64,000 nucleotides of DNA from Massalongia carnosa (lineage: Eukaryota). A model generated the notes under the pieces. That model ran no database searches. It was not told the origin of the DNA and saw nothing but the letters and a program-made list of their open reading frames with translations. The translations under genes were made by a program, and so were the position numbers. Location of the stretch: positions 62,001 to 126,000 of the forward strand of contig OZ287082.1 of NCBI GenBank assembly GCA_965645245.1. Reading direction: 5' to 3'. This document shows, piece by piece, positions 12,088 to 64,000 of the stretch; position 1 is the stretch's first letter; each line of letters opens with the position of its first letter.

Positions 12088-12145
12088 CTAGATGATCCAG
12101 CGAACTCCGGGTTCATGGATGGATCCTGAGGGATGGTTGGATGTA

Positions 12146-14380
12146 TGGGTCCAACAAGCTCAGAGTGAACCTTCTGGAATAATTCCTCTGTCGTCTTCTG
12201 AGTTGACCGATTATATTGCTTTGTTGCCTTTCCTAGTTCACAGGAGGAACAGTACCAATCATCCTTGATGTCATCCAGAAACGATACGTCTAGACCTTTT
12301 AGGTATTTCCGACAGCTTGAGATGTTGAGGTGACCGAGACGGGCGTGCCATGTTGTCAATTTCACCTTGCTGGACGTGTGATAAATCGCCGTCTCAGGCC
12401 ATTGAAAGATATCGGCTTCTATTCTTGTAAGATGGATAGCCAGGTCTGGGGTGTGCAAGGTCTTCAGCATGAAGTTGGTATTGACTCTTGGTGCATAGCC
12501 TATGATGTCTCTGGTTGAAAGAAGAAACAGATTCCAGTTCAGCTTGTCAAAGTAGACCTTATGTTGATTGAGTAATCCAAGACTGACAAGATTTACTGGA
12601 CATTGTGGAATGTAAAGAACGTTATTAAGGACGAGTATTGACGAAGGTATGTCATCTTCTGATGCTAACGTTATACGAATCATTCCCCTTCCTGGCGAAG
12701 TACCATTAGAAGTAGAGCCTGCCAGGTCTGTAGAATAGACTATGTAGTCAGCGAAAGAAGATCTGTTGTTACATACGTGCATGTCTGCGGCACTATCCAA
12801 AAGCCAGGAATTTCTGCTGAGACTCGTCATGGTCATAACCTTCTGCAGCCTAGTGGTCATGACCAATGTGAGTCAACTGTTCACAGTTGGCACATTTGTT
12901 GTGGTGAGAGACATTGATGGCGTTTCAGTTTTTGAAACAGAGGTTTTTGTCCCTCTTATTTTCATAGACTTCAATGGAAATTTGGGTCGTTTCTCAGGAT
13001 ACTTTTGCCAGCATCTTTCTGGTGCATGAGCGGTTGTTCCTTTACTCACACATTCCGAAAAAGTGCAAGTTCCTGGCGGTGTCTTATCGTTTCTACTTGA
13101 AACGTTGGTATGAAATGCCTTCTTGTCAAACATATTGACAGAATAAGAGGTAATTGCTCTGCATGCAACAGTGAGATTTGATTTGCTAGTGAGCTAGTCG
13201 CGACGAAGTTGAGCTATAAGAAGTAGGTAGACATCAGAAACGTTCCGTAACAAATATCCTTGAAGAACTTGTTCTGCACCCATTTCGCTCAATTCCGAGT
13301 TCTCTTCTATCATGCCCTTTATGGAGTTTAATGCATTTTCAAATTCGGCGCAATATTTAACAGCGCTTCTATACTCCGTCTTTCTTTTAAAGCTCATGTT
13401 GTAAAGAATGTCGGTGATGCTCATAGGTGCAATATCTTGAAACTTTGTTCTCAAAGTTCTCCACATTTCACCGGCCGATTTGATTGCGAGAAGAGTATGA
13501 TGCTGTTGAGCGACTCGCATTTGGATGATCCCTTCGGCCTTGAGCATAAGATGATTCTGTTTTTCAATGTCCGCTCCGACTTTGGTGAAGATTTGTTCAG
13601 CCTTGATATGTGCATCAGTGAATCCCATTCCCAAGTATTTAAGCTTGATTATTTGATATGAGATGACTGGTATATTGTCTTGAATAGCAAAGATACAGTC
13701 TTTTTGCTTTAAAATTGCTTCCGTGTGGGTTCCCCATTGTGAATAGTCTTCAGCTTTCTCTAATAACAGGACTTTATCCTGAAGAGAATTCGTCATCGCG
13801 GGTTGATAAGTGTAAAATAGACAAATTAGATTGATATCTAAAGAGTTCTTATAACACAAGAAATATAGATGATGGATGTAGGATATGACAAGTAAATTCC
13901 TATTAAGAAAAAACTAGACAGTGATCCCTTCCTTTAATCATTTTTCATTTCTTTATTTCCCGTCTATCTGTCTCTATGCCTGCATTCGGAAGAAAAACTC
14001 ATATTCCGTAAAAAGCGGCTTAAAAAGGCTTTCGCATCCAGAAGAGAAAACCTCATATTCCGGAAGCGGCTTAAATGGTTCTCGCATTCGGAAGAGAAGT
14101 CTCATATTCCGATAGCGGCTTAAAAAGCTTTCGCAGCCAGAAGAGAAAATCTCATATTCCAGAAGCGGCTTTGAAAATTTATTGAAAGAAGTGATTAAGA
14201 CTTCAAAGAGAGAGCGGAACTCGAATAACATGAATTTATCATGTTTTTTGACAGGCTCTCGTCTTTGAGGAATGTATCTCTTCTTGCCTTGAGCTTTCTG
14301 GTTGTAGTTTTGTCTCTGATCTTCGAAGAATCTATCTTAAATAGATTCGCTCGATATTGAAGAGATCTACTAGTTTCATA
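12146..14380 (-). mobile_element. Truncated Ty1/Copia element (leader, gag, protease, GAG-pre-integrase); diverged relative of 33806-40143
   Basis: gag ATG 13796; zinc knuckle CTFSEC...HAPERC; WLLDSAADMHVCN; WHARLGH...CSSC; breaks at VHSELVGPI. Confidence 0.9.
13985..14172. repeat. ~45-55-bp tandem repeat (about 4 units) in the Copia leader
   Basis: Repeated gaagagaaaa(n)ctcatattcc...agcggctt. Confidence 0.8.
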
Positions 14381-14709: not shown

Positions 14710-15871
14710 ATGAATCGATCCACCACTCCACTTCTTGAAATTACAGGGCCTGGAGTCGAAGTTCCTACACCTAATAAGGCAAAAATTCAAGGAGCTGTAG
14801 AATTTTGCGAAGCAATGGGAATATCTTATTATAAGGAAGACGTTTTTCGTGTGTTCAATGTTTCAAGACAACAAGGCTACAAATATCTACGCAGCGAATC
14901 TTCACGAAGACATCATAATAATCCTGATATATCAGAGCAGCGGGGTCGAAAATCTATCATAACACCTCAACAAATACGAGAAATGGAGCATATTCTTGAG
15001 ACCGAAGGCATTGAAGCACGAGCTTTAACTTGGGAACAATTGGGCTACGAAGTGGGCTTGGATTGTAGTGGTCGCACAGTTCAAAGAGCGATGGGTACGA
15101 TGGATTATCATAAGTGTGTTTCTTGTAGAAAGGGCTGGGTCAATAAGAAAACAGCAGCGCATCGAGTCAGTTGGGCAACTGTAATGCTTGAGAAATATCC
15201 TGAGCCGGAGGATTGGCATCATGTACGATTCAGCGATGAGGTTCATTTCGGCTGGGGTCCTCAAGGAAAACTACGAATCATACGAAAATCTGGAGAAAGA
15301 TATTGTCAGAATTGTATTCAAGAAGAGAATGAACTAGACGAGAAAGATAAAAAGCGTTGTGGAAGGATGAACTGGGTGGTGTGCGTGGTCTACTACTGCT
15401 AGGAGTGCAAGAGAACAAACAAACAAGAGAAGAACAGAACAATAGAATAAGAACAATAGCTAGACTGATCACTGTAAGCCTCGCGCCTCGTGCCTGATGC
15501 CTCATGCCTGTGAACTGTATGTGTTGATGCTATGTGTTGTAGTTATTGTTACGAGCATGCTTGCTCTAAAAGGAAAAGAACTATCTATAACTAAACTAAA
15601 AGAAAGACTGTCACCTGACTTCCCCGCTACCTTTACCGAGTATCAGCCGAAAGAACCAACTCCCGAACCGCTAGCAATTTGAATTTAGAGTATCACCGCT
15701 CCACCCCCCTACAGCGTCATAATTGCTGGGCTGCGATGGGACATAGTTTTAAATCAGATATCTTTTTTGATAATGTTTCGGGTAGAGTAACACCAACGGA
15801 AAGATGAGTCAAAAGGCCTATATCGAGCAGATTTTGAATCCGATTGTTCTTCCATGGCTGCAAACGAGTCA
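14710..15871 (+). pseudogene. Tc1/mariner transposase, interrupted by LTR-E and truncated by the Gypsy LTR
   Basis: WHHVRFSDEVHFG (first catalytic D); resumes after 15717 as HNCWAAMG...NGKMSQKAYIEQIL.PIV.PW. Confidence 0.88.
15358..15713 (+). mobile_element. Solo LTR family E
   Basis: TGTGG...CTACA, 4-bp TSD GCGT; further copies at 41565 and 47578. Confidence 0.9.
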
Positions 15872-16321: not shown

Positions 16322-19300
16322 TCAAGAGCTGAGCTCCTGCGAAGCAGTTTTATTCATGACAGCGACATCGGGAATGGAACAGGGGGTGAGATGTGGGCCG
16401 GATGCACCAGGATAGGCTTCGTGGAATTCGTCCAGAGCTTGTTGACAGTTGGTTAGTAGGTGAAATGGCTCCCAGGTGGGGGTATGTCCTTCCCAGTTGA
16501 CGAAATACTTGAGAAGCGGAGCTTGATAACGTCTGTCCAGTTTCGAGTTCAGAATGCTGTTGACATACCATTCTCGCTGTCCATCTTCGGCTATTATTGG
16601 GTCGCGAAGCTCGAGAATTTGTCCTGGGAGGGGGTCGTCTGCGTCCTGTTGTAGCAGATTTACATGAAAGACCGGATGAATTTTAACCGTGTCGGGGAGT
16701 TCCAGTTGAACAACAAGAGGGTTGGCGAACACCTTACAGACTCGGTAAGGACCGACATTTCGATCGTCCAGTTTGGCTGCCGGACGGGCTGTCTGGATAT
16801 TTCGGGTGTTCAGCCATACCATGTCTCCTACAAGATAACGAGGACAGGGACGGCGGTTCTCATTGGCGGAAGATTCGTATGAGGCCTGCGCGATCAACAT
16901 CTCTTCTCGTAGGTGAGTGTCTACGTCTCGCATCTTGTCTACGAATCGATTGGCGGCGATCAGGTTAGCGATTCCCTGGGCGGTCAGGTCTTGCGGAAGG
17001 GGCTCTTCGGGTTCGAATCCTACCCTGGGGTGTTGTCCATAATTAGCCAGGAAGGGAGAGGCGAGAATGCTGGAGGAGTCGGTGTTATTGCTGGAGAATT
17101 CGGCACCGGGTAAGTACTGGGCCCAGTCATCTTGCATGTAATTGACGTATGCCCGAAGATAGTGCTCCATGGTTGCATTAGCCCTCTCGGTTTGGCCATC
17201 TGTCTCGGGATGAAAACTGGTTGATAGCCTAGCATCAATTCTAAGCCGTTTACACATGATGTCCCAGAAATCGGAGGTGAATTGGGTGCCTCGATCCGAA
17301 ATCAAGGCGTCTGGGAGACCGTGTAATTTCCATACATTTTGGTAGAAGGAGTTAGCAGCCTCTTCTACCTCCATGGAGGTGGTGGGGACGAAATATCGCA
17401 TCTTGGAAAGGCGATCGATGAAGACGAGGATATAACGATAGGTTATACCCATGAAGGTGCTCGGAGGCAGCGGACCTACGTAGTCCATGGAAACGTCACG
17501 CCATTGACGTTCGGGTGGGGACAGAGGGCGTAGCCATCCTTGGTATCGTTGGCGGGATGGTTTGGATCGTCTACAGGTGTGACAGTTACGAATGAATCGT
17601 TTGACGGTTTGATGCATACTGGGCCACCAGTATGATCGATTCATTAGTTCGTAGCATTTGGAACGACCGGGATGGCCACCTGCTACGCTGTCGTGTGCCT
17701 GTTGAATGAGACGGAGACGGAGCCGATCCGAATTGGGTACGTATCGACGGTTTCGAAAATAAAGAATCCCTTCTTTATCTTCACATTCGGCTAGCTGAAT
17801 GCCGTTATGATATCTGACATTATTGCGAAGCATGTGTAGAACTTTCAGAGAGAATTGATCCTGTTCCAGAGCTTGTTCCCATAACAGCTGAGTTGGGACG
17901 TCGGTCGGGTCTTGGCCAGGATTGGTTTGGTCGGCAGGCTGATCCAGCTGTGGTTCAGGTTCAATGAACTCGTGATCATGTTCAACGGACTCGGGATCCT
18001 GTTCGATGAACGCGGGGGCTAGGATAATCGTGGATAAGAAACTTTTCGCCACTTCGTCGTCCAGGTTATGAGTTTTCAGGATGGTTTGATGCTGATGTTT
18101 ATGTCTTTCATCAGTTTCATCCCCCTCTTTAGGGAGGTCTCCTGAGCGACGAGTCAGTGCATCTGGTTTTCCACCAGCTTTTCCGGGTCGATAGACTATT
18201 TTAAAGTCAAATCGGGATAAGAATTCGGACCAGCGAGCTTGACGACGACTGAGTTGTTTGGTTGAAGCGAAGTATTCCAAATTCTTATGATCTGAGATAA
18301 CGCTGATGGGGTGAGCAGAACCTTCCAATTCCGGTCTCCATTCTTCGAAGCATCGGACGATGGCCATGAGTTCCTTGTCATAGATCTCATAATTGCATTC
18401 GGCCGGGTTGTGTTTCTTGGAGAAGTATGCGATGGGGCGAAGCACGTTCTCGTTGTCATACTGAGAAAGGATACCACTAGAGACGTAGTCCGAAGCATCG
18501 GTTTCCACGATGATAGGACGATCGGGATCGAAATGCATCAGTATTAGTTCCGAGGTGAAAGCTTTTGTTAGAGTTTCGAATGCCTGTTGACATTTGTCAG
18601 TCCATTGAAAGCTGACCTCCTTTTTGGTTAGATTCGTCAGTGGGCCGGCTATCTTACTAAAGCCGTATACGAATCGTCTATAGAAGTTAGCAAATCCCAG
18701 AAAGCTTTGTACATCTTTCATATTGATCGGTATTGGCCAATGAGTTACTGTTTCGATTTTAGCGGGGTCCATTTTGATTCCCTCGGTGGTTACGATTAGT
18801 CCGAGATAGGCAACTTCTGTGACATGAAATTTGCATTTGGTGATGTCTACTTGCAGCCCGGCTTCTCTCAGCTTGATGAGGATACGTTTGACGTGGATTT
18901 CATGCTCGCCTTCAATTTCGCTGTAGATGAGAATGTCATCTAGATAGGCCGTGCAAAAGTCGTCGAGATACTCTCGAAGAGTATCATTGATGAAGTGTTG
19001 AAAGGAGGCGGGGCCGTTACAGAGGCCGAATGGTAGGACCAGGGATTCGAAGAGGCCAAAACGGGTTCTGAATGCGGTGAGTTCTTCATCTCCTTCCTTG
19101 ATGCGGAGCCGATTGAACGCTGAAATAATGTCCAGCTTGGTGAATATCTTAGCCCGACTCAGGCGATTCAGGGTTTCGGTGATCAGGGGAAGCGGATACC
19201 GATTCTTAATCGTGATGGCATTGAGGCCTCGATAGTCGACACAGAAGCGAAGTCCTCCTCCTGGCTTCTTTACGAACATGACTGGGGAGGCAGCGGGGGA

Positions 19301-20737
19301 TTTACTAGCTCGGATGAAGCCTTTCGACAGGTTCTCATCAAGGTAGCGTCGGAGTTCTTCGATTTCGGTTCGACTCATGCCATAAAGAGCTTGATTCGGG
19401 ATTGGAGAGCCTTCTTTTAGCTTTATGGCATGGTCGTAGGGTCGGTGTTCGGGCAGGACGTCCGATTCTTTTTTGGAGAAGACATCCAGAAAGTCGTGAT
19501 ACTGTTTGGGTAGAAGGGGGGCTGGGTCGACGTTCTTTCGCTCACGATAAGCGTTCAGTTCTTCGGCGGTCACTGCTGATTGCAGTGTCAAGGGTTGAGG
19601 TTCGGGTTCGGTCACTGAACATAACTGTGTCAGAGCCTGGTTCATACGGAACAGGGCTAAGTGATATTTCTTTTCACTAGGGCTGGACCGGGGGTTGGGT
19701 TGGTAGGTTGGTTTCGAGTGTGCCCAGTCAGTCTCTTGACGAAGGCGAGATTCGGGTTTGGGTTCAGGCTTAGGTTCAGGTTGAGTCAGGCCGAGAAAGT
19801 GATCGATTTTTTTCAAGGAGAGAGCAAACATCTCGTGACTCTTTTTTCGTCCGAGATAGTTGAAGTTGAGGGCGCCGATTTCACAGACGTCCAAAACAGG
19901 AGGATTGCGATTCTGCTGGGCAGCATGTCGCTGAGTGGAGGTGCGATACGAAGAGGGACTTCGATATCGGATTTTCGGTGAGTCGCCCTGTTCAATCGCT
20001 TTTTCGATACGACTGATGTCCTGATTTTCGAGAGAAGTTGTCTTACTATCGCGCGGCGTGGTTTTATCGGACAGGACAGGTTTTTCGGACAGGATTTGAC
20101 TATTGGACGAGTAGTTTTCCGATTCCCATACTTCCTGACTTTCCGCAGGAGATAGGAATTTCTCGCCCGTGTAGGCCTTCACCTTGACTGGATGAGGGCT
20201 ACAATGAGCCAGGCAGAAAGAGGAAGACAGGGAGAGAGAGTTGGACTCGAAATCAGCGAGAGCTTGATGTCGTCGCAACCACGGGTGTCCCAGGACGATG
20301 GGGTAGGTTTTCAGTCCTGTTACGAAAAGGAATAATCTTTCTACATGTCCGTTTAAGTCCATGATTACCTCGGCCACATGAGTGATATTTCCAGTCAGAG
20401 CCGGCTGACCGTCGAAGCCTTCAAGGCGTCGGGCGTATTTGAGGGGATGAAGGGGGATTTGGTGAGTTTGCGCAAACTTCTTGTCAATGAATGCATAGCC
20501 AGATGCACCACAATCAATCAGATTGAGAGCTTGAATTCGAGATCTACCTAAACGTAAGATACATGATACCACTAGGTGGCTATCTCGAAACGCTTCTTCG
20601 GTTTCAAACAGCTCCAAAGCGGAGGCTGCGGAAAAACGAGTGTTTGATTGAAGGGGGGGAGAAAACGAGTTGGCTAACAGACAAGAAGAAATTAAAATAG
20701 GGCTCTGCGCGCGACGATGCGCAGAGTCTAGACGTTT
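16322..20737 (-). CDS. pol: Gypsy Pol: protease, RT, RNase H, integrase, chromodomain (open frame, normally expressed by -1 frameshift)
   Basis: LIDCGAS, YLDDILIYS, ETDASD, HDSVAGGH...CHTC, SDRGTQF, GPY, YFVNWEGHTPTWEP. Confidence 0.95.
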   Translation of the reverse strand, partial: KRLDSAHRRAQSPILISSCLLANSFSPPLQSNTRFSAASALELFETEEAFRDSHLVVSCILRLGRSRIQALNLIDCGASGYAFIDKKFAQTHQIPLHPLKYARRLEGFDGQPALTGNITHVAEVIMDLNGHVERLFLFVTGLKTYPIVLGHPWLRRHQALADFESNSLSLSSSFCLAHCSPHPVKVKAYTGEKFLSPAESQEVWESENYSSNSQILSEKPVLSDKTTPRDSKTTSLENQDISRIEKAIEQGDSPKIRYRSPSSYRTSTQRHAAQQNRNPPVLDVCEIGALNFNYLGRKKSHEMFALSLKKIDHFLGLTQPEPKPEPKPESRLRQETDWAHSKPTYQPNPRSSPSEKKYHLALFRMNQALTQLCSVTEPEPQPLTLQSAVTAEELNAYRERKNVDPAPLLPKQYHDFLDVFSKKESDVLPEHRPYDHAIKLKEGSPIPNQALYGMSRTEIEELRRYLDENLSKGFIRASKSPAASPVMFVKKPGGGLRFCVDYRGLNAITIKNRYPLPLITETLNRLSRAKIFTKLDIISAFNRLRIKEGDEELTAFRTRFGLFESLVLPFGLCNGPASFQHFINDTLREYLDDFCTAYLDDILIYSEIEGEHEIHVKRILIKLREAGLQVDITKCKFHVTEVAYLGLIVTTEGIKMDPAKIETVTHWPIPINMKDVQSFLGFANFYRRFVYGFSKIAGPLTNLTKKEVSFQWTDKCQQAFETLTKAFTSELILMHFDPDRPIIVETDASDYVSSGILSQYDNENVLRPIAYFSKKHNPAECNYEIYDKELMAIVRCFEEWRPELEGSAHPISVISDHKNLEYFASTKQLSRRQARWSEFLSRFDFKIVYRPGKAGGKPDALTRRSGDLPKEGDETDERHKHQHQTILKTHNLDDEVAKSFLSTIILAPAFIEQDPESVEHDHEFIEPEPQLDQPADQTNPGQDPTDVPTQLLWEQALEQDQFSLKVLHMLRNNVRYHNGIQLAECEDKEGILYFRNRRYVPNSDRLRLRLIQQAHDSVAGGHPGRSKCYELMNRSYWWPSMHQTVKRFIRNCHTCRRSKPSRQRYQGWLRPLSPPERQWRDVSMDYVGPLPPSTFMGITYRYILVFIDRLSKMRYFVPTTSMEVEEAANSFYQNVWKLHGLPDALISDRGTQFTSDFWDIMCKRLRIDARLSTSFHPETDGQTERANATMEHYLRAYVNYMQDDWAQYLPGAEFSSNNTDSSSILASPFLANYGQHPRVGFEPEEPLPQDLTAQGIANLIAANRFVDKMRDVDTHLREEMLIAQASYESSANENRRPCPRYLVGDMVWLNTRNIQTARPAAKLDDRNVGPYRVCKVFANPLVVQLELPDTVKIHPVFHVNLLQQDADDPLPGQILELRDPIIAEDGQREWYVNSILNSKLDRRYQAPLLKYFVNWEGHTPTWEPFHLLTNCQQALDEFHEAYPGASGPHLTPCSIPDVAVMNKTASQELSS

Positions 20738-21103
20738 TGTCAACCTTTCACATGAATTCAGGAAGGATGAAAAAGGCTGTATCGGGGTCGATGAAGGCAG
20801 CGATAAATCAGCTTACCAATAACTAAAGTTAAGACGGAGGCAGCGAAAAATTCAGCTAACCCGGGCTCATAACTGTCAACCTTTCACATGAATTCAGGAA
20901 GGATGAAAAAGGCTGTATTCTGTATGTGGGAAATGCCCACATCTAGCTACCTATATAGAAGGGAAAAGGGGTCATGGCAGCAACGATATTAACCCCGGCA
21001 AATTGAGGGGTAAAGGTGTGGAAGAAATGGCGTAGCTTAGCGGCATCTGCCGCGACAGGGGTCGAGGATCGGCGATGAGAATCGACCACATTCAGGTTTG
21101 ACA
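20738..21103 (-). mobile_element. Internally deleted Copia remnant (family D): full LTR, PBS, ~90 bp internal, partial LTR
   Basis: TSD CGTTT at 20733-20737 and 21104-21108; LTR 20874-21103; PBS GTTATGAGCCCGGG on the minus strand at 20860-20873. Confidence 0.92.
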
Positions 21104-22292
21104 CGTTTCCCGAGTCGTCAGTCTCGGGAGTGAGGGTCGAGACGACTTCCATGTTGCGAAGGCGTTTGGTAGGCTTATTTGGACAGTCGGAGGCCGACCC
21201 GAGGTGTTGCAATTTGCAATAGAAGCACAGGTTCCAATTCTCGCAGATCTTCCTTACTCCCTCGGTTTTCAACGACTGACCTTTGACAGCCGCCATGGCC
21301 TGACTTAGGTCCATGGGGTTTCCAGCTGGGGGGAAGGCGGGGGTTGGCATCAATGGGGTGACCGTGCCCGTGACGACAGTGCGGGGGAAAGGGGCAGCAG
21401 GAAGGTTGGTGCCGTTTCTTCGATTGGCGGGAGCTGATGTGGCCGGAGTCGTGGCCTTGGGTGCCAGATGACGGATCTGACGGATTTTCCGGTCCGTGCT
21501 TAACCACATTGCGACGTGCTCGTCGAAGGTGATTGGCTCCAGATTGGTGCCGGGGACTCGGTAGTGGACGGCCGCGGTTTGAACGGAGTAGTTGATGTTT
21601 GCCTTCATGGCATCAATCAACGAAGCGTCTTCCATTCTGGATCGGTCTTTTTTCTGAGAGAAGAGAGTGTTGTACTCTTCGAAACTCAGAGAGCCCTGCT
21701 TGAGGGTTTCTCGAAGGTACTTACGGGCATCCTCTTGTTCGAAGGGGTTGCCGCAGGCCAGGCGAAGAGCAGAACGCCATTCGGAGTAGGTGGTGAGTCT
21801 ACAAATGCCATCCACTCGATACGCATTCATAAGGTTGTGAGCTCGTTTCCCGATGGTGAGCCGATTCTCCGCGTATGCAATCTTGGAGGCATCGGTGGAG
21901 TATCGATCATGATTAACGTGCATCCGTTGAATCAGGCTCTGTTCCCAGGAGTCCAACTTGGCTTCATCTCCATCGTACTCGGAGATGTCGGGAAGTTTTT
22001 CGGAACGAAGATCGGTTTTGGACTCGGAATTCCGGGTCAAAAGGAGCTGCAGGAGGGCAGCTATCTGAGGGTTCATTGCCGGAACGGACGAGGGAGACGA
22101 GGTTGATGCTGGAGTGGGTATAGGGGGTTCGGGAGCTGGGGCGGCCTGCAACCGGGCCACCTCGTCTTGAAGTCGTCGTATTTCCGCGACGAATGCTTCA
22201 GGATTGGTTTGGAACTGGTTTTGAAACAACTTCACGTTCTCGTCGATGAGAGGATTTTGGGGGACGGTCATCTCTTCTGAAGACGAAGACAT
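21104..22292 (-). CDS. gag: Gypsy Gag; native stop displaced by the insertion
   Basis: SEKLPDISEYDG motif, zinc knuckle CFYCKLQHLGSASDC; ORF 20943-22292 runs on into the inserted LTR. Confidence 0.9.
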
Positions 22293-30909: not shown

Positions 30910-33900
30910 GATGAACTGCTGAGCAATGTTGACTGTTGATGTTAGCCTGTGTTAGCCTGTGTTAGCCTGTTTTAGCCTAACAAGATTGGGTCAGGCGACT
31001 GCGATTAGTTACCCAATTAGGCTAGCTTGAATTTTAGGAGTTCAGGTAAAATCTCTGCAGATAGTAAACAAATGAACTATCCCTTCCAAATATTCGTATC
31101 ATGCACCAAGGTGATCAATTCTCCCTCCAATATTGACAGAAGAGGCCTATTTGACGCGAGGACTGCATGGGAAGTGAAAGGCTGTTGAACGTATGTACTC
31201 GTAATACCGAGTTCGGCAGCACTTTGCGATCGTGTCAGACTTGCATACATCGTAGATAAGGTCGGATAAACTCTCATTACGGCTGACGAATTCCAAAAAG
31301 ACAATTTGAGATGTATTAGATTAACATTAAGCGTGAAAGACTTTACATATATTGAAGAATCTTGAATATGTCACACTTCTTACCAAGGCTGTGGAAGTTT
31401 GTTAACCAAAATGGATCGATGAGCAGAGAAGTCGGGACTTGATCTTTTATCACTTTTTTTATTTTTTATATGATTTAAATTCTTCGGCGGATACTAGACT
31501 GAAGAGGATTGAATAGACGGCATACTGCAAAAGAGCTTGAAATAGTTTTAAATCAACGTTTACTGAAAACTATTTGACCGAATGTACACCCAGAACCTCG
31601 TTTTCTGGATTCAAATGCTTTGCAGTAGGATGCATCCGATCCCAACATCATACTTTCTGACCAGTGTTTGCGCGATAGACTGTGAGTTCAAGATGATCAA
31701 AACCGTTCCTGAACTCTTCTTCCATGCAGATATTATCGATGTCATGATCACTAACTACCGCCCCTCTGTCGCCGGATGCTCCTCCATGATTTGTCACTAG
31801 AATGTCCGAGATGCTCTTGGCGTAAAGCACCATGGTATTGTCGTCAGTCAGTGGATTCCTTGATGTCGAAGGCCTTGCGTCGCCACTGATAATCCCGCGG
31901 TTGGAAATAGGCCCCAGTTCGCCGGATGCTTCGTCCAGCGTCCTTTCGCAAATGTCCTCGCGTCATCGAGAAGCCTTCACTCAAGGTGCCCGCTACGTAG
32001 TGAGAATTGCACGAGAAGACTCGGGACAGTCCCCCCCCCATCCCCCCAGCGAAAATCATTGCAAATTTACAAGCCACCTCCCCATACTAAATATGTGCAC
32101 GTCCACCGTCTCTCCGCAAGCTTCCTCTAGCTGATTTAGCTTAGCCTTGCATTCTGAAAAATCTGTTAAAACGGCAATCGATGCAAAGTACCGAAACCAG
32201 CTGACAAAGCAATTTGCATCTACCTCGTCAAGGAAAGGCTTGTGGCGGTGGCAAATTTGTATGAAGTCAGAAATCGCATCGGAAGCGGGAACCGATGAGA
32301 TGGAAATGGAAGCTTCTGGAATCGCTGGTGGACGGGCATAATTAGGAGCAGTTTTACCCTACGTAGTGGTAGAAAGTCAATCGTTTCTCCCAGTTTGTTT
32401 TGCATGTGCAAGAACTCGTTTGTCGAACTAGTCATATCAATTGCCCAGTGCTACCATTCCGCCTGTTGCAGTCACAGTTCCAACAAAATTCTCATCTATT
32501 CATACTACTACTATTACTACTACTCCTACCACTCATTGCGATGATCTCAATTCCGAAAATGCATCACTCAATTGCGAAACATTATCCTTTCTAGGCTTCA
32601 TAGTCTTAGTAACCTTTCTTGCAGCTGCGTTTTTCCTCTCCTCAGCCCTTGCTTGTTTGGCCGCTTGGTCGGCCCTCTGCTGAGACTCCAACTCCAACTG
32701 AGCCTTCAATTTTTTTGGCTACCACACTCCGTGACCCTCGTGTTGTTGTTGCAGACGATGTGGATGGTGTCTGGCTAGCGCGGATGTTTTTCTGACTTAG
32801 GCTATAAAGGGAAGGAGCTTTTGAAGAGGGAATTGTTTGGGAAAGAGCCTTTTGGCTATGTTTCGCCAGCACGTCATCAATATCTTCAAATGAATCGGAA
32901 GAAGATGCCGAGGATGGAGGGATAAAATCATATTCTCACTCAGAGGGAGTGGAGGATCGGGGGTAGGCTGAGTTGCTATATATTGCAGGTCATCGTCGTC
33001 AAATACGATGATAGCATCTCCGGAATCTATACCGAATATTAGCCGCGCTGCATCGATCGATTTGCTAATATCATGGGTTTTTTAACATTAATCATATCCT
33101 TGTCTTCATCACCTGCCCGCAATTCATCCTCATGCCTTCCTCTCCTTACTTCTTCAATCGAGTCCTTACGTTTAGCACGTCGCTGCTTAGCTTCATCTGC
33201 CTCAGCTGCCTCACGGCCAGTGTAAGCCCGCCGGCGACTCCCACTCTTTTTATACATGAGGTTGTCCTTCGGTCGGATTTCGTCGGAGAAAGTTGTAGGG
33301 ATAAGTGGCCTCCCCAGCTCCTTATCCTGCCATTTTTTATTGAAAATAGCAGTGAATTTGGCGAATTCACGAGCGTATCCCTCCCTTCTATGCACATTTT
33401 CTATTGATTTATGGAAATCAATAGATTGATGTGCGGCCGCATGCAGCAAATAAACACCCCCGCGACGTAATCTATCCTCAGTATTATTGTCAACTGCCTT
33501 CTCGATCTCCTCTTCCGGCCCAGATTCTTGTCTTTGTTGAGCATTCTCCCCCTCATCCGCCTCCTCATCCTGCTCTTCTGTGGTCTTCCTGTGAGCTGCT
33601 CTCCGAAACATCTCAGCGAAACTTATGGTGGGGTCGAAAACCATTCTTCACGAGATCACAAAAGGCGGGCAATCGAAAAATCAGCGGGGATTAATTAGGG
33701 AGAAAGGTATGGGGATAACATCAATGACGCAATGATACAACTAGCATCTGCACGGAATATCGTATCGTGGAGGCAAATCAAAATCATACAATCCTCATCG
33801 GTTGGTACCAGCATTGCCTAGCCGATAGATTAGATAAGATCAGATCTAATCTAATCGCATAGAGGCTCGGATAAACTATTATCATCTCGCTTAGCAGAGG

Positions 33901-34460
33901 TGACCAATATAAAGGGAACAGATTGCTCTGCACTCCGTAGCAACTCTGCATCCTTAACATCATGGTCATACAGGCCCCTATCTTTACATAGTCATATAGC
34001 CATAGTCATAGACCTATTCAACAGGTTATGAGCCCGGAAGGGCGCTATCGATCATACAGGAATCGAAGCAATTCTTATCCGCAGCATCACGATGCAAAAT
34101 CATTAGCTGAGCATCATTATCCTTTCTCGAAAAGAACTAGACGGACAATGCAAAGACTAAATCTCTACTTGTTTACAGACCTGAATCAGGCGGGATTCGC
34201 ACCCGCAAGTCTAGCTAGTTGAACAGCTTCGTGAAAGCACATCATGACAACCTCTCAATCAAATAGAGACGTTTAACAACAACGCCACCTGATCCAGCGT
34301 TCCCTACCTACAAAGGGTTATCAGAAAGAGCATGGAAATCGTCTACATCATAAGCAGAGAGGCTCTTTGCCAGACTACAAGCATCAGAAGACATTCTCTT
34401 CATCAGACCATCAGAATGCTCTCATGCCCGAATATCTGAGAGGCACTCCGGAGGATGACG

Positions 34461-35160
34461 TTGACCCAGAGGCAGACTCCAGTGGACCAATTCCATTGTT
34501 TGACCTCTGCTGCATCACCATCCATTTGACTTTTGACCCAGAGGCAGACTCCAGTGGACTAGCTCCAAGGTTTGACCTCTGCTGCATCATCACTCATTTG
34601 ACATTGACCCAGAGACAGACTCCAGTGGACCAGTTCCAATGAGTGACCTCTGCTGCATCATCATTCATTTGACTTTGACCCAGAGACAGAACTCTAGTGG
34701 ACCAGTTCCAACGATTGACCTCTGCTGCATCATCATTCATTTGACTTTGACCCAGAGACAGAACTCCAGTGGACTAGTTCCAACGATTGACCTCTGCTGC
34801 ATCATCATTCATTTGACTTTGACCCAGGAACAGACCTTTTCACTGAGGTTTGTTCAAAAACCGCGCAGCGCGGCCTTGACCACTTATGAAACTCTGATTT
34901 CTGCTGAATCATCAATTGACTGACGTTGACCCAAAGGCAGACTTCATTCTGACTTTTGCTGCATCACCACTCAACTTACTTTGACCCAGAGACCGACCAT
35001 CTAAACTATCTTTCAGGGTCCGATTTCTGCTGAATCATCAAATGACTGACGTTGACCCAAGGGCAGACTTCATTCTGACTTTTGCTGCATCACCACTCAA
35101 CATACTTTGATCCAGAGACAGACTTAGGAAATTCAGTTCCAAGGTTTGATCCTTGCTGCA
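34461..35160 (+). repeat. 71-72-bp tandem array (5 full units plus variants) in the Copia 5' leader
   Basis: ttgacccag starts at 34461, 34533, 34604, 34675, 34747, 34819; derived units follow. Confidence 0.92.
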
Positions 35161-35606
35161 TCATTCATTAACAGACTTTCTGACTAGTCTACGCGTATAC
35201 AGATGGAGTAATCAGACTTCAATTAAGCAGAACGCCTCAATCGAGAAATTCAATCCGGAAAAAACCTTATTCCATTTAACAGGCCCGGCCTATTAAATGG
35301 AACGGTCGGACCGTGGTTCCGACAGCCCCCTATCTCCATACCACCAAGTGAAAGTTTCACCATCTGAAGAGAGTTCTTTCATGAGGGTACAAGCGTTGTG
35401 GCAAAGAAAGGAACATCACAGTTTGATGACAAAGGAAGGGAAATGTTTTGTCTATAACTAGATCACATATTCCCATCTCCTCCATTCATTCCAGTGCACA
35501 TCCTACTCCTGCACCAATCTCAGAAACTTAGATACCTTTCAATCTACAGAAGTTTACTAGAGACCTCTTCTTCATCTTCATCTGACTCTCTTCATCTGAC
35601 TTCATC

Positions 35607-38600
35607 ATGTCTCTTCCTGAAATCAACAGTTCCACAGAAAAGCCTCACCTTCTAGAGAACTCGGAACACTACTCAGCATGGGCTAGTTACACCAGAGGTA
35701 TTCTGCTGAAGAATAACTGTGACACAGCCATTCTGGAAACCCAACCAGAGATCTCATTGGACTCCATCAGAGAGAGCCTCATCGTATCAGGGTTTACTCC
35801 GGCCAGTCTTACTACCAGCATCCTCGTCAAAGAACTTCGGGATGATAAGAACAGACAGAAAACCGAGATGACCAAGGCTATTGGAATCATCCATGGACTG
35901 GTTGCACCATGTCACTACAACCTCATCAATAACAAGACCGCTGCCGAGATGTGGGCCATTCTGAAGAATAGGTTCCAGGACGTGGCACCAATGAGCATCA
36001 CGGATGTCATCTTGAGGGTTAGTACGAAAAATATGAGAGACTTCGACACAGTCAGTCAATACTGTTCAGAGTATGACGGTGCCTTCAATCAGATCAAGGG
36101 CATGTTGATCGAAGAGGTCACGGTGAACGTCGACTCCATAGAGTTTGTACTTCAGGGAATGCTGCTGGGTAACTGCACAGACAAGTATGACCCGCTCATT
36201 GCACAACTCCGCAGGGACTAGACGCACGACACCACAAACCTTTCGGAAACAACAAAAATCCTCATAGCCTATGCACGAAACCTAACTGTCAAGGCTTTTC
36301 ACACTGGCGCTTGCAACAGAGGTAGAGCACCTATCGGAAGTTGCACCGTTCCAGAGTGTGTAAATAGGAACAGAACACGACATTGGCCAGATGATTGTTT
36401 CCAGAAATTCCCCCATCTAAAACGGGCGAGAGGAGACACGGCTGAATCAGGGAGGGTCAGGAGACAAAAGAACTCCAATCCAGAAGTCACCACGTCAACT
36501 CCAGACACCACAGTCACTACAACTCCCACAGTGAGCAGTTGACTCACAGTGGTCATGACTACCACTCTACAGAAGGTCATGACCATCAACCATCTCAACA
36601 GAGACACCTGGCTACTAGACAGCGCAGCGGACATGCACGTATGCAATCACAGGCCGTCGTTCATCAACTACATAACACGCTCCACAGGTCTGGCAGGATC
36701 TACATCAGATGGCACGTCTCCAGGGAGGGGAATGATCCGGAAAACGTTGGCACTACAGGACGACTCACCCTCGTCAGTGTTAATACTGAACAACGTTCTT
36801 TTCATTCCACAGTGTCCAGTGAACCTCGTCCGTCTGGCACTACTCAACCAAAACAACATCTACTATGACAATGTTAACTGGACCCTATTCAACGGGATTA
36901 GTCAGAACATCATAGGCTATGTGCCAAGAGTCAATACAAACTTTGTACTAAAGACCATGGACGCCCCAGACGTGGCTACACATCTTATGCAGACAGATGA
37001 GGGCACCTTTCAGTGGCCGAACACATCAGTCTACCACACGTCAGCCATAACAGACCTGTCAACATGGCATGCGCGTCTTGGTCATTTAAACCTGATCACC
37101 TGCCGAGCTTTTCTGAAAAGACTCGATGTGTCGTACTCAGACAACGTGAACAAAGATTGGTACTGTTCATCCTGTGAACTCGGAAAGGCCACTAAGATAT
37201 ACAACCGGACACCTCAGGAGAGAGCAACAGGCATCTTTCAAAGGGTTCATTCCGATCTAGTAGGACCCATCAAACCAGCAGGACTTCTTGAAGAACAGTA
37301 CTTCCTTACCTTCACCTGCGATGCCAGCAGATACACTCATGTGTATACAGGCATCAAGAAGAGCGAATGGTTTGATCATCTGTTGACATACTACAGTCTA
37401 GCTCAGAACAAGACAGGAAAGAGCAAGCCAATAAACATCTTTCGAACTGATTTCGGCACAGAACTTCGAAGTCTGAAATCGGATGATTGGTTCTTGAAAG
37501 AAGGGATAACGTTTGAACCCTCCGCACCGTATTCACAGGAACAAAACGGTGTGTCTGAACGAACAGGCAGAACTATCATGGACATGACTAGATGTACCAT
37601 CATTGCAGGAGGCATTCCGGACTACCTATGGACAGAGGTGGTTTTAGCTATGGTTAACACAAAAAACGTCAGACCTACAAATGCTTTATCCGGAAAGACC
37701 CCATTTGAAATTTACGAGTCAAAGTCACCTCCTCTGAATCATCTGCGAGTGTTGGGATCAACCGTGTATATCCTCATTCATGAGGAAGAACGCAAAGGCG
37801 CCAACAGCAAATCGGCCAATTTCTACCTCGGGCCCAACGCGGAGTCTTGTGTGGGTACGATGGATGCACGATCTATCGAGTCTTTCTGAAAAAGGACTAC
37901 AGGGTCATCAGGGTCAAAGATCTGCGCATTCACGAAGATGCCATCTCCAAAGACCAGACCAACGTTCCTACATACGAAGCCATCATGACTCCCGATATAG
38001 TCACTCCATCAAAATCAACAGTCATTTCATCCCCCACAACGATTCCAAAACGTGGACGTGGCAGACCCAGAAAGCATGCTCAGATAGAACACGCATTGTA
38101 TCTTCTATCAGACACAGCTTTAGATGAACTCAATCATACTCCTACATACTCCTACATAGACACAGAGGATCCACTCGTTCTTCTTGCCAGAACCTTGGAA
38201 AAAGGAAGGATCATCAGGATTGGAAGACTATGACGCACTGTCTCAACTCGACATAGCTGAACCTCAGACATACCATCAAGCTATGAAAGGTCCACATTCA
38301 GAAAGCTGGAGTCGTTCCATGGACAATGAACACAACAGTCTTCTCGAGAACGAAACATGGACTCTTGTCAGAACCGAAGATATGGAGCCCAATCATACTG
38401 CTCTCAGTGGAAAATGGGTATACAAACTGAAACGAGACGTCAATGGAAATATCACACGGTACAAATCCAGATGGGTGGTGAAAGGCTATCTCCAGCAGTA
38501 CGGAGTAGATTTCGAACAGACCTATGCCTCCGTAGTGAAACCAATGGCCTTCCGATTATTGTTTGCCATAGCAGCTCATCATGACTTGGACATCGAACAG

Positions 38601-39845
38601 CTTGATGTCGTCACAGCATTCTTGTATGGGGTAATAGATCAACTGATTTACGTCCAAATGCCCAAAGGATATGAAAAAGCGGGCATGATCTGCAAACTGA
38701 ACAAGGCTCTCTATGGCCTGAAACAATCTCCACGCCTATGGTATGAAAGGCTATCCGAATTTCTACTTACCAAGCTGGGTCTGTCCAAACTTCACGCAGA
38801 TCATAGTATCTTCTCTTCTTCGGCAGGAATAAGAGGTCCAATTGTTACCTCCTTCGTTGATGATCTGAACATCATAGATCCAAAGGGATCTCCAATGATA
38901 TCTGAAGTCAAGAAACAACTGAACATTGCGTTCAAGATGGTGGACATGGGCTCAATCAGTCATTATCTAGGCCTAAAGGTAGAACGAAATCGCGATAACA
39001 GAACAATCAAACTATCTCAATCTACCTACATCGAAAAGGTCCTGGAGAAGTTTCATATGCAGAACGTGAAAACTACCACCACCCCAATGAAAGAAGGCAG
39101 TCTATTCAGAAATGAATCCCAGGCCTCAGAATCAGACATTAAACAGTATCAAGCAATCGTCGGCTCCATCATGTTTGCTATGATAGAAACAAGGCCTGAC
39201 ATTGCCTACGCGACCTCAGCGGTCAGCCGACATGCCAAAAATCCTGGCAAATCACACATGGAGGCAGCCAAGCAGATTCTCAGATATCTCAGTGCAACCA
39301 GAAACAGAGGCATTACCTTTGGTGGCGGAGATTTTTCTATACAGGGCTATTCCGATTCTGATTGGGCCGGTGACAAGGAAGACCGCAAGTCCACCTCCGG
39401 ATACGTCTTCATGCTGAACAATGGACCGATCAGTTGGGCCTCAAAAAGACAGAAAACCGTTGCCCTCTCATCCACAGAAGCCGAATATATGGCACTCACC
39501 TTAGCTGCTAAGGAGACCATATGGATACGCTTATTGATGACAGAACTCGGCCTGATGCAGGATGATGCTACTCCGACAGTGAATGTACTTGAAAGGGAAG
39601 GCGCTATAGCATTGAAAGGTGATAATCAGAGTGCTATAGCACTGGCCAATAATCCCGTCTTACATTCAAGGACTAAGCACATCGACATTCAGCATCACTT
39701 CATACGGAATGAGGTCACAGAGGGTCGAATAGACCTTACCTATGTTTCAACAGAACACATGGTAGCGGACGGACTGACCAAACCGCTTACCCACGTCAAA
39801 TTCTTCTCCTTCATCAGACAACTTCACATGAATTCATCTAGTTGA
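35607..39845 (+). pseudogene. Copia gag-pol; in-frame stops at 36219 and 36540, frameshifts near 37820 and 38200
   Basis: WLLDSAADMH, WHARLGH, FRTDFGTE, EQNGVSER, YKSRWVVKG, FVDDL, YSDSDWAG, ADGLTKPL. Confidence 0.93.
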
Positions 39846-41564
39846 GTTCATACCCCGCAGCGCGGTTTTGATCATCAGAACAAGTACTGGCAGAACTTGA
39901 GGGAGGGTGTTGAATGTTCAACTTCTACCAGCATTGCCTAGCCGATAGATTAGATAAGATCAGATCTAATCTAATCCCATAGAGGCTCGGATAAACTATT
40001 ATCATCTCGCTTAGCAGAGGTGACCAATATAAAGGGAACAGATTGCTCTGCACTCCGTAGCAACTCTGCATCCTTAACATCATAGTAATACAGGCCCCTA
40101 TCTTTACATAGTCATATAGCCATAGTCATAGACCTATTCAAAAGTTGGTTCGATTAATGCAGTCCATTCGACTTCAAAAGAAAATTCTTGATTGAAATCT
40201 TCGGCTAAAAGTTTAGCTGCATATAACTCTCTAGATATGAGGTCAATAGCATGATGAGTTATTAAACCTATAAGGTCTTTGAACGCACTTTTATTTATTA
40301 GCCGGGGGCTGTTGATTCGTTATGATATTTCGTAATCAATCTGAACCCTTTGCACTGTTTCGCATATTTTCCGCACCGAGTCTTTAATAGATGTATGCCT
40401 ATTTGTCACATTTTTTACCAATGGATGCAAACCTTTCACCCTTTATGTGCTCTGTGCATCTAAATTAGAACTTTTTGGTTTATGCGGAAACAAACTGATA
40501 ATTTGCCTAGGTATACAACGTTCTCAGCTAGAGGAAGAGATAGTAAATGCACTTAATTATTTAGTATGGGAGGTGGCTTGTAGCTAGTCCTAATTTGGAA
40601 TGGTTTTCGCTGGGGGGACGGTAGGGGGACTGTCCCGTGTCTTCTCGAGAATTGCATAGTGAGGGAAAATAAATAGACCAATGCTTTTAATCACCGCTCT
40701 CTTTCGTCGTGGGGGTTTAATTAAACTTACTTCGAGAAGTAGATATCGAATTCATAACACCTTTCAACCTGTTATCAAAGACATCAATGTCAAGAAAATA
40801 ACTGCAAAGCGGAACGTGAAGTATCCAAAGCCTCTCTATGAAACAAAATTGAAAAGCAAATAGTCATGGAAGCTTGTTCCGAAAGGGTATAGAATTATGA
40901 CGCCAAAATATGTAAACTGTCAGTCAGAAGAGCAAAGATTGCTTCGACAGCTACGGGTAGAACTGTACTTAATAACAGGCAGGAACTTCAAAAGTGTAAG
41001 AATGAAGATAACAACGGGATATATAACGGTAGAATCATTCAAGACCAGTTTCAGAGACATTCTTGAAGCCGTTCCTTAGATATAGGTATTACATCAATAC
41101 TGAGCGGTTGATTTGATCCGTCTATACAAACGAAAATATACCTCTGAGCTTGTCACGCACGTGACGGAGCCGCGAAAAAGAATTTCAACGGCCAGTCTTA
41201 GACTTAATCCCGCGCGAATAAATAGTTCTAATGACGTACGTAACATTCAAACAAGTCCTGACTTACCGTTTCAAATCACAATCGAGGCGTCCAGAACAAG
41301 CAGAATTATTATAACGAATTCAAACATGCATTACAATATCCCAATCAATGTTTGTAGTGGGTGGAAGAGTTCAAGGATTGAATTCAAGCGGGATATATCG
41401 CCAATACAGAAAAGAAAATGTGACTAAATATGCGACGAATACACAAGTGAGGATATTTAAGGGGATTCTCGATGATACTATCTCCTTAAGAAGAAAGCAG
41501 ACGCTGATAGTATGCTGATAAGAGTGCAGGAGATAAGAGCTTGCAAGGCGAGTAAGGAAAACGC

Positions 41565-61033: not shown

Positions 61034-64000
61034 TGTTAGATGTTAGAGGATGAGGCCACCATCAATATGGGCATCCATCATGAGCCCCGGGAGGGGCCTG
61101 GCAAAGTGCCTAAACAAGCAGATATGGGGGGACAAGGTCTGACCGTTTAGGCTCCTAGATGTGACTGTTTTGTGACTGCTACATAAAGCAGACAAATAGC
61201 CCACATAGATAATTATCTTCAATGACAATCATGCTATTTCACCTACACGTGAATTAATCATTCATCAGGTTATGAGCCCGGCTCACTTTTACTACGTTTG
61301 AATAAGCCCCCACATTGATTGTCAAACAAACTCACCTCCACCTCTTCCACCTACCTCATTCTATATTATATATATATTCCTTTTCATATCCCACTTCATA
61401 ATCCGAGCAACCGAAGGGACCCTCTTTTTTCCCCGCTCAGTAACCCCTACTCCTAAGCACGATGGCCAAAGGGGAGAGTCTATACACATTCCCAAAGCTA
61501 ATAGGGAGTGGAAACTATAAGAAATGGTCCAGAGACATGGCCTTCGCCCTGCAGGAGGCGGAACTTTGGAACTACGTGACTGGTGCTCGGAAAATGCCTC
61601 GAGAAATTCCCCCTCCACCTCAAAAAACTGATGAGACACCCCCGGAGGAAACAGAGGAACAGCTAGAAAAGCGGGACAAACGGGACCTTGAACGCATAGA
61701 GTTCTCGGAGAAACAAAGGAGAGTAGTTGGTAAAATAGGCAAGATGTGCACGGATGACGTGCAACATAAATTCTTGTCGATGAGAAACCTAGCCAATGGG
61801 GGCATCTGGGACCCGAAGGACCTTTGGGAACACCTGAAAACCCGATACACCCTCAGAAATTGGAGTGCGAAATGGAGCACATTCAACCGGCTGGAGGAAA
61901 TAAACTATGAAAAATGCAAGACCATCGAGGAGTATGGTAGCCTAGTCAGGGACATCAAGGCCGAAATCACCGACATGGCCCTGACCGTTGAGCACATTGT
62001 AGTGCTTAAACTCCTCAATGGACTCGGCAGTTCATTCAACACCTACCTGACCATCCTGAACGAACAAGCCCGGCGGAAGGACAAATTCCCGGCGTTGGAT
62101 GACTTACTAAAAACCTGGAGGACGAGGAGGCTCGTATGCGCCAGGACCCTGTCGCCATAGCTAGCATGCTGAAGACAAAGGGTAAGAAGAACCCCACCGA
62201 AGAGGGTAAGAACAAATGCAAATGCTGGGGTTATAATCACTCCGGAAAATGCAGGCATAGCAACGCTACATGTAGGAAGTGTAGTAAGATGGGCCATCTG
62301 GAACGCGTTTGTGAAAGCAAAGAAGGTAATGAAACCTCAAAACCCCAAATAGTCTGTGCAATAAGGGAATGTTTCCGGACAACGACCCAGAAAACACCGC
62401 TTATTTGCCTGGCAAATCTGTACCGAGGCCCCAAAAACACCCACGACCTGTTGATCGACTCCGGTGCCACCGCGCACATTGTTTGCAATAAAACCCTTTT
62501 TCAAGAGGGGACCTTTCGGATCGAACACAACCACCTGGAATCAGGTTCCGGAGAGGTGTTATCAACGGAAGGAAGAGGTTCCCTGGTTCTATCAGTAAAC
62601 CAATGGAAATGGAAGCGCAATGGACCTCATCCTAACCAACATCCTTTTCGCCCCCGATCTAAAATTCAACCTCATCAGCACAATACAACTCGGCAAGAAG
62701 GGCATATCAACGTACCTGATGGCGGATGACAAACCCGCCCAACTGATATACAAAGAAAGGGTGGTTGGACTGACCAAAACAATAAACGACCAATATGTTT
62801 TGCATACAACTACTACGGGCCCTCGCCACCACAAATTCGGCAAAGGCCCCTATCCAAACATGGCACGAACGACTCGGCCACCTCAGCTACCCCAACCTCC
62901 TAAAATTAAACCATTTGGCCAAAGGAGTCACCATCGAGGGACCTATACCGGAAGGAGTATGCGGCCCATGCATGATGGGTAGACAACAAAGGAAAATAAA
63001 TCGCACCCCAAGGACCCGAGCAACAGGATTTCTGGACCTACTGCATAGCGATCTTGGGGGACCATTCCCGCTGACAAGGTTTGGCGAACGCTTTTATGTT
63101 ACGATAAAAGATAATTATTCCGGGGTAGTGTGGGTTTATCTGATGAAAACAAAAGGTCAAACCTTCGAATGTTTCAAGCAGTTCAAAACATGGATAGAAA
63201 ATCAATCGGGAAAGAAAATAAAGAGTCTTCGAGCTGATGGAGGAGGGGAGTACACCAGTGGCGATTTCCAGGAATTCCTGAAGAAGGAAGGAATCCAATG
63301 GGAGGCCCGGGCACCAAATGTGCCAGAACAGAATGGGAAGGCCGAAAGGCAAAATTATACCCTCATGGTCCCCACCCGGTCCATGATGAAAGCTAAGAAA
63401 AATCCCTTTGGGGGGAGGTTTTGAAGACGGCCGGGTACATTAAGAATATAAGTCCCGGGGTCGACGAGGTCACTCCTTATGAACGCATGAACGATGCGAA
63501 ACCCTTCCTCGGCCACATGAGAATGGTCGGGGCAAGGACGTGGGTACACATCCCAAAAGAGAAAAGAAAGAAGCTGGATGACCGTTCCTGGCAGGGAATA
63601 TTTGTCGGGTACGATGGAAACAATCAATTTCGAATCTACGATCCTCTTACCGGAAAGGTCCAATGTTTGTCGCGATATCACTGTCGATGAAGGCAATGCA
63701 TATGATCTCAAGGACAAAAATGCCTGGGACCTCGCCGACATTCCATGGGAGCAGGACGATGATGGTTTATTTGATGATCCAGACGACTTCGTTGATGAAA
63801 ACAAAGTCGGACATCCAAGTTCGTTATCTCCAGTAACTCCGAGCTCTGAAATATCGAGAAGTCCGGTAGTCCAACAAGACATGGCCCCACCAGCACCACG
63901 AATAATGCTCCAACCAATTGGAGTAGATGCTTCGGGAGGAGGCCAAGCCGAGGAGAATGGGGGCGAGAATGACTCCGATGAAGTGGAGGACATTCCTCGC
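61034..64000 (+). mobile_element. Ty1/Copia element (5' LTR, gag, protease, integrase); continues beyond the window, frameshifted
   Basis: LTR to 61267 (start 61034 or 61041), PBS GGTTATGAGCCC at 61268, CRKCSKMGHLERVC, IDSGATAH, WHERLGH, LRADGGGEY, EQNGKAER. Confidence 0.93.

Follow-up and report, generated by a model that had tools for sequence, protein, structure and literature searches.

A complete, nearly intact Ty1/Copia (Pseudoviridae) long terminal repeat (LTR) retrotransposon, here termed copy 1, is present in a 64,000-nucleotide stretch of DNA assigned to Massalongia carnosa (GCA_965645245.1, contig OZ287082.1, positions 62,001 to 126,000; the whole stretch is hereafter the window, numbered from its first letter), and its gag and pol genes are separated by an in-frame UGA that is closely followed by a hairpin. 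The assignment is based on two LTRs lying 6120 nt apart, with the 5-bp sequence GTTGG on both outer flanks as a short target-site duplication, and on pol domains that follow the Copia order: Pol_BBD (residues 23-105), gag_pre-integrs (158-215) and RVT_2 (603-850, E 1.2e-58). Copy 1 is slightly damaged, by an in-frame TAG within gag (36219-36221) and by a stretch of pol that is out of frame, corresponding to about residues 423-542 of the database protein P0160, which is described below. A second element (copy 2), a distant relative, resides on the opposite strand. Its DNA matches that of copy 1 at 71.3% identity over 750 nt, beginning about 15 nt before the stop (blastn), and it is cut off within the integrase; unrelated DNA, noted over about 11800-12140, takes the place of the integrase region from about 12140. 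Coordinates of both copies and of their junctions are collected in Table 1.

Table 1. Positions of the two Copia copies and of the components of their gag-pol junctions in the window.
Feature	Position	Strand	Remarks
Copy 1 5' LTR, 219 nt	33806-34024	+	direct repeat, 98% identity
Copy 1 3' LTR, 219 nt	39926-40144	+	direct repeat, 98% identity
Copy 1 gag open reading frame, 311 codons plus UGA	35607-36542	+	Pfam Retrotran_gag_2, E 2.4e-06
Copy 1 in-frame UGA between gag and pol, then CU	36540-36542	+	preceded by AGT
Copy 1 spacer CTCACAG (RNA CUCACAG), 7 nt	36543-36549	+	3 of 7 purines
Copy 1 hairpin 5' arm TGGTCATGAC (RNA UGGUCAUGAC)	36550-36559	+	holds AUG 36555
Copy 1 loop, 16 nt	36560-36575	+	14 nt with the extra U-G/C-G pair
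Copy 1 hairpin 3' arm GTCATGACCA (RNA GUCAUGACCA)	36576-36585	+	holds second in-frame AUG 36579
Copy 1 pol (protease, integrase, reverse transcriptase, RNase H), in the gag frame	36543-39845	+	Pfam
Copy 2 gag	12876-13796	-	40% protein identity to copy 1 gag
Copy 2 TAG in gag	13196-13194	-	same codon as the copy 1 TAG
Copy 2 junction, whole	12830-12875	-
Copy 2 UGA	12875-12873	-	context UGA CUC, as in copy 1
Copy 2 spacer CTCACAT (RNA CUCACAU), 7 nt	12872-12866	-
Copy 2 hairpin 5' arm	12865-12856	-	identical to copy 1 arm
Copy 2 loop, 16 nt	12855-12840	-
Copy 2 hairpin 3' arm GTTATGACCA (RNA GUUAUGACCA)	12839-12830	-	one G-U pair
Copy 2 pol remnant, protease and N-terminal integrase	12141-12872	-	homology to copy 1 stops near 12145

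The junction has the same anatomy in both copies. An earlier note on this DNA, made from the sequence alone, had described, at each, a TGA and, after a spacer of 7 nt, a hairpin with a 10-bp stem and a loop of 16 nt, with gag and pol in one frame; the letters bear out this description, and in each copy the frame closed by the TGA runs on into a protease motif, LLDSAADMHVCN. The stem is a perfect 10 bp in copy 1, and the single change within it, in the 3' arm of copy 2, yields a G-U pair, as had been stated. The further statement that the loops diverge was too strong: 5 of the 16 positions differ, and both loops have the same CAGAAG at their 3' side. Both AUGs in the stem arms, at 36555 and 36579, are in frame and have G at position -3. 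Two other features of this segment can be set aside. Together with the four bases after it, the stop forms TGACTCA (36540-36546 and 12875-12869), a heptamer of the Gcn4/AP-1 type; the window contains 9 matches to this motif where 11 would be expected, a lack of enrichment that offers no evidence for a factor site. An antisense open reading frame (ORF) at 36299-36634 (111 aa) was treated as spurious, and opposite copy 2 there is no ORF of at least 100 aa.

Evidence from two sources supports the view that the in-frame UGA is native to, and conserved in, an otherwise intact Ty1/Copia lineage, and is not a product of decay. Contigs from four public runs were aligned to copy 1. Every contig of three of these runs (two in X1, one in X2 and six in X3) has G at 36220, and the gag TAG is therefore private to copy 1 relative to the runs. 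Relative to copy 1, the same three runs have an additional letter after 37817 and lack one at 38199, and with these two indels the out-of-frame stretch of pol disappears. At the junction itself the evidence comes from X1 and X3 only, as no listed X2 contig spans it. The dominant X1 contig (36153-36772) differs from copy 1 at seven positions and the dominant X3 contig (36195-36806) at six, all of them listed at or before 36505; hence both retain the TGA and the whole hairpin. A diverged X3 contig (35984-36654, 107 differences) also covers the junction, with junction letters that fell under the listing threshold and were not used.

The second source is the set of homologous proteins in databases. 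Four of seven gag homologs end exactly at the junction codon, and these span 62-96% identity to the gag of copy 1: P0153 (96%, 37 member sequences), P0156 (62%, 16 members), and P0158 and P0159 (both 73%, with 3 and 4 members, respectively). All four terminate in P-T-(V/L)-(S/N)-S, the other three being truncated or divergent at their ends, and all seven have Trp where the window copies have TAG. On the pol side, P0160 (96% identical, 22 members) is an intact ORF of 1096 aa that begins MTTTLQKVMT; its start corresponds to the ATG at 36555, four codons past the stop, and its length to the distance from there to the stop at 39845. The stretch that is frameshifted in the pol of copy 1 is open in P0160, and the same numbering matches on both sides of that stretch. 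More distant intact ORFs containing pol only (P0161, P0163-P0166 and P0152; 1101-1189 aa, 43-70% identical) begin, at the earliest, about 28 residues ahead of the protease motif. No fused gag-pol protein of at least 546 aa was found for the copy 1 gag among database proteins, which is weak evidence. Comparison of copy 1 with copy 2 gives proportions of nonsynonymous (pN) and synonymous (pS) differences of 0.20 and 0.66 in pol after the UGA, with a ratio of the corresponding rates (dN/dS) of 0.15 over 244 codons; for the part of gag that lies between TAG and UGA, the corresponding pN and pS are 0.43 and 0.82. Judged by these values, pol downstream of the UGA is under purifying selection, and the stop has therefore persisted while the pol frame stayed selected.

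The premature gag stop is a separate matter. Both copies read LRRD followed by TAG at the same gag codon, despite about 71% DNA identity, and the change from TGG to TAG seemingly arose twice within 23 kb, whether by coincidence, through a TpG-to-TpA hotspot or under selection for a truncated Gag. A role for this shared TAG as a second recoding site was ruled out by the Trp in seven of seven gag homologs and by the G at 36220 in X1-X3. Copy 1 is distinguished also by its leader, which extends 1.58 kb from the 5' LTR to the start of gag and is unusually long and repetitive for Copia; it includes tandem repeats (34456-35179), in which a unit of about 72 nt occurs five to six times at 34456-34820 and, in weaker form, at 35102, as well as a 126-nt pair at 34893-35144.

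The hairpin that follows the stop is stable in both copies and occupies a position at which such structures are found in viral readthrough signals. The 38-nt hairpin of copy 1 has a predicted energy of -17.4 kcal/mol (z -4.29; none of 200 shuffles as good) and that of copy 2 -15.9 kcal/mol (z -3.38; 2 of 200). RNAalifold, applied to the two copies, returns 11 pairs, none of them broken: nine are unchanged, and in the other two (G-C/G-U and U-G/C-G) a one-sided change leaves the pairing intact. Perfect hairpins with a stem of at least 10 bp and a loop of 3-20 nt were counted across the 64-kb window and in 20 Markov simulations; there are 18 register hits, at about 10 places, against a simulated mean of 0.95, and by our arithmetic the chance that a perfect hairpin starts within any particular span of 8 nt is about 1 in 1000. 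In both copies the structure begins 7 nt after the stop, within the range of about 6-9 nt that characterizes stimulatory 3' stem-loops. Four-fold degenerate sites are unchanged at 4 of 5 positions in the spacer and stem and at 0 of 3 in the loop, against 36 of 73 elsewhere in pol. An apparent suppression of synonymous change in the first 20 codons after the UGA (pS 0.36, against 0.66 in the rest) was withdrawn, since the four-fold count shows no significant excess. In P0162 this region reads MATRLQKVMT; judged from the protein only, its change from T to A must reflect an A-to-G change at a stem position facing U, and pairing would be retained. No match to Rfam covariance models was obtained between 36300 and 36900, on either strand, at E up to 1.

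These features are most easily reconciled with programmed readthrough of the UGA at the gag-pol junction, which we consider probable, and which is favored because the leakiness of UGA-CU in fungi has been published. Most ribosomes would stop at the UGA and release Gag, and a minority would decode it with a near-cognate tRNA to give a Gag-Pol fusion carrying protease, integrase and reverse transcriptase; this minority would set a low ratio of Pol to Gag. Leakiness would arise primarily from the UGA-CU context and would, under this model, probably be raised by the hairpin of 10-11 bp beginning 7 nt past the stop, which would abut the mRNA entrance of a ribosome with UGA in its A site. We infer both readthrough and its enhancement, and hold them with different confidence: stimulation by the hairpin is a possibility that we place somewhat short of even. 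No tRNA genes were found in the window, leaving no local suppressor candidate, and ascomycetes are not known to possess selenocysteine machinery. As to precedent (published work is given here as it appears in excerpts of the papers cited), UGA-CU(A) was enough to bring about efficient readthrough in HeLa cells and in Ustilago maydis (PMC4207609), and Gypsy elements of fission yeasts show strict conservation of TGA-CT where gag stops before pol (bioRxiv 10.1101/2022.12.06.519325). Stem-loops located 7-9 nt after the UGA in alphaviruses raised readthrough up to about 10-fold, as established by mutagenesis, and such structures have been predicted from sequence in several genera of plant viruses (PMC3159437).

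Several observations nevertheless weigh against this interpretation. Compensatory double changes were seen in 0 of 11 pairs in the two DNA sequences compared, and the excess of unchanged four-fold sites in the spacer and stem over the rest of pol is not significant (binomial p about 0.18). The readthrough signal proposed in the earlier note is supported in part, by a native and conserved UGA, selection on pol, the UGA-CU context and a hairpin at viral spacing; selection on the hairpin as such is a possibility. The core of the stem, GTCATGAC, is a palindrome, is repeated directly and encodes V-M-T in both arms, so that conservation of the peptide can account for much of the retention of the stem; against this, the peptide of this region is not kept in the wider clade. 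A scan of metagenomes for DNA of relatives recovered two loci (L001 and L002, at 24-25% identity) out of 80 pattern matches, and none of 40 matches in genome contigs or of 44 in viral contigs was confirmed. The two loci represent the same distant Copia, with one gag/pol frame split by UGA-GGG (L001, 836-838; L002, 2429-2431), and that junction has no significant local fold (z 0.04), so the hairpin is not a general requirement. Trp occupies the position of the stop in the distant P0031 and P0171 and in P0032, a 144-aa fragment of the copy 2 family that is about 93% like copy 2 (counted by eye); those copies may have TGG, or TGA may have been read as Trp by the gene caller. Lastly, in the nearest precedent, the Candida element Tca2, local sequence flanking the UGA, including a predicted pseudoknot, gave no readthrough in Saccharomyces cerevisiae, where a promoter at the junction drove the reporter instead (PMC2194720).

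One alternative is that the UGA-CU context alone drives readthrough and that the hairpin is a by-product of the self-complementary V-M-T repeat, an explanation we regard as unlikely, though by no means negligible. With a palindromic core, any direct repeat is also an inverted repeat; the peptide LT(V/L)VMTT.LQKVMT is common to both copies; the synonymous-site test falls short of significance; the context by itself suffices in Ustilago (PMC4207609); and the L001 junction does without structure. Yet P0163-P0166, P0009, P0012, P0096 and P0002 have unrelated residues in this region, where the constraint on protein sequence thus seems weak, and the two outer pairs of the stem (UG/CA) lie beyond the palindrome. 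Moreover, the placement of the hairpin 7 nt past the stop would be the 1-in-1000 coincidence estimated above, and both changes in the stem keep the pairing.

The remaining alternatives dispense with readthrough, and the least improbable of them, still quite unlikely in our view, is that Pol is made apart from Gag, by termination and reinitiation, by internal initiation at the AUG at 36555 or 36579, or from a subgenomic transcript starting near the junction. The two in-frame AUGs with G at -3 in the stem arms would suit such a scheme, as would the many pol ORFs of relatives (P0007, P0163-P0166 and P0169) that start with Met at the position of the second AUG, but these starts are partly an artefact, since gene callers need a start codon. 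Retention of a common gag/pol frame in both diverged copies also speaks against it, and Pol normally enters retroelement particles as a Gag-Pol fusion. In Tca2, the junction promoter active in S. cerevisiae is a precedent for a separate transcript, but expression of Tca2 Pol tracked the LTR promoter, pointing to translation from the gag-pol RNA (PMC2194720). Less probable still is a 42-nt in-frame micro-intron (36531-36572), which would be spliced from some transcripts, removing the UGA and fusing gag to pol. The candidate reads GTGAGC...CTACAG in copy 1 and GTGAAC...CTGCAG in copy 2, with its 3' AG inside the loop of the hairpin; it has GT...AG ends, a length divisible by three and a branch-like motif (CTCAC/TTGAC) in both copies. 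A length of 42 nt, with 11-15 nt from the 5' site to the branch point, is nevertheless below the usual geometry of ascomycete introns, copy 2 has no G at +5, and GT/AG pairs are common by chance; in P0158 and P0159, which end PTLNS, the substitution of L for V would abolish the GT. Regulation of the Gag:Pol ratio by splicing does have a precedent in Drosophila copia (cited in PMC2194720). Comparably remote is the notion that the UGA is a Trp codon decayed in dead copies, or one restored to UGG by adenosine-to-inosine editing of the RNA. The Trp at the stop position in P0031, P0171 and P0032 would fit, as would other G-to-A lesions at Trp codons of copy 1, such as that at 36220, but the Trp may itself be a gene-caller reading of TGA, and the majority contigs of the other runs have the TGA without the other lesions. 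Decay is likewise difficult to reconcile with four gag clusters (37, 16, 3 and 4 members) ending at the junction codon, and with strong purifying selection on pol between two copies that both bear the stop. As for editing, that of fungi favors U before the edited A, and the junction has G.

Programmed readthrough, as the preferred reading, places the junction among systems that are already known, with distinctive differences from each. Tca2, a Ty1/Copia element of Candida albicans, shares the single frame, the single UGA, the short spacer and a predicted downstream structure holding an in-frame AUG, and its in-frame UGA between gag and pol agrees with what the earlier note had stated; however, the spacer of Tca2 is 8 nt long and rich in purines, and the structure predicted for it is a bulged pseudoknot, in contrast to the mixed 7-nt CUCACAG and plain hairpin described here (PMC2194720). 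VdLTRE5, a Copia element of the filamentous ascomycete Verticillium dahliae, also has GAG and POL separated by UGA, a layout its authors call 'very rare', and has no CARYYA motif (PMC3441728). That motif is absent here too, with CTCACA following the stop; unlike the present case, neither a downstream structure nor a UGA-CU context is reported for VdLTRE5 in the excerpted account (PMC3441728). The fission-yeast Ty3/Gypsy elements Tj1, Tcry1 and Tosmo1-3 carry an in-frame TGA followed by CT that was interpreted as programmed readthrough, and the stop of Tj1 is stated to be essential for transposition; they differ in belonging to the Gypsy superfamily, in their conserved 8-bp GAA TGA CT (AGT TGA CT here) and in that no hairpin is described in the excerpted report (bioRxiv 10.1101/2022.12.06.519325).

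Viral signals offer further parallels. The UGA stem-loops of alphaviruses, furoviruses, benyviruses and other viruses (Firth et al. 2011) combine UGA-C with a spacer of 7-9 nt and a stem of about 10-12 bp, and benyviruses are predicted to form a local, compact hairpin whose spacer, stem and loop measure 9, 12 and 8 nt; but most of these signals are extended (100-140 nt) and backed by many compensatory changes and by mutagenesis, whereas the present hairpin is a compact 36 nt without support from covariation (PMC3159437). The gammaretrovirus murine leukemia virus (MuLV) resembles our element in that its stop is in frame and is followed, after about 8 nt of spacer, by a structure lying where mRNA enters the ribosome. 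It differs in using UAG-G with an essential compact pseudoknot (PMC3159437), in place of UGA-C and a plain hairpin, and it is on the pseudoknot that the gammaretroviral analogy drawn in the earlier note fails. A crude script search of copy 1, in which G-U pairs counted, found no complementary run of at least 5 bp linking the loop to the roughly 100 nt downstream; copy 2 has several such runs, none at a position shared with copy 1. The junction is therefore not a pseudoknot signal of the MuLV or Tca2 type, having neither the pseudoknot nor a purine-rich 8-nt spacer. Junctions with an in-frame UGA have been described before, as have the UGA-CU context and stem-loops on the 3' side of a stop, and the element joins a known type.

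The surroundings of the two copies are rich in transposons and fungal in character; besides a Gypsy element with a chromodomain and a fragment of a third Copia element, they contain a gene for dynamin and a DUF7791 ORF. The nearest named cluster of the dynamin is mostly from Ascomycota, and one of the runs bearing the element is labelled 'lichen metagenome'; copy 1 is a retrotransposon of an ascomycete. The Gypsy element is an apparently intact Ty3/Gypsy chromovirus on the minus strand (16322-22292), with a pol ORF of 1346 aa that encompasses RVT_1, RNase H, integrase and chromodomain, and a separate upstream ORF of 449 aa with no Pfam match. The third Copia (61444-64000) belongs to another lineage and has several frameshifts; a single ORF (62103-62729) encodes both its zinc knuckle and its protease motif without an intervening stop, the usual Copia layout, in contrast to the gag-UGA-pol junction. 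Copy 2 is adjoined by an ORF (14710-15402) for a transposase of the Tc1/mariner type with a helix-turn-helix domain.

From the perspective of retroelement biology, the general picture is unchanged by the gag-UGA-pol junction of the copy 1 lineage. The manner in which Pol is produced by Copia elements with an in-frame gag stop is nonetheless unsettled, the studied case, Tca2, having shown no readthrough from local sequence in baker's yeast (PMC2194720). The present lineage, with intact gag and pol ORFs in many database copies and family members at 40-96% protein identity, represents a second and apparently active fungal Copia system, in which a textbook leaky UGA-CU is joined to a short, easily mutated hairpin as a simple and testable signal. 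Tentatively, and a shade less confidently than we propose stimulation as such, the hairpin may be an enhancer of readthrough that acts through its structure and is native to a Copia lineage of filamentous ascomycetes associated with lichens, and the first simple local stem-loop signal of this kind in a fungal retrotransposon. If so, the same 46 nt, with their palindromic arms and two in-frame AUGs, could both tune readthrough and furnish a fallback start for Pol, and would bear on how retroelements set the ratio of Gag to Pol in these little-studied fungi.

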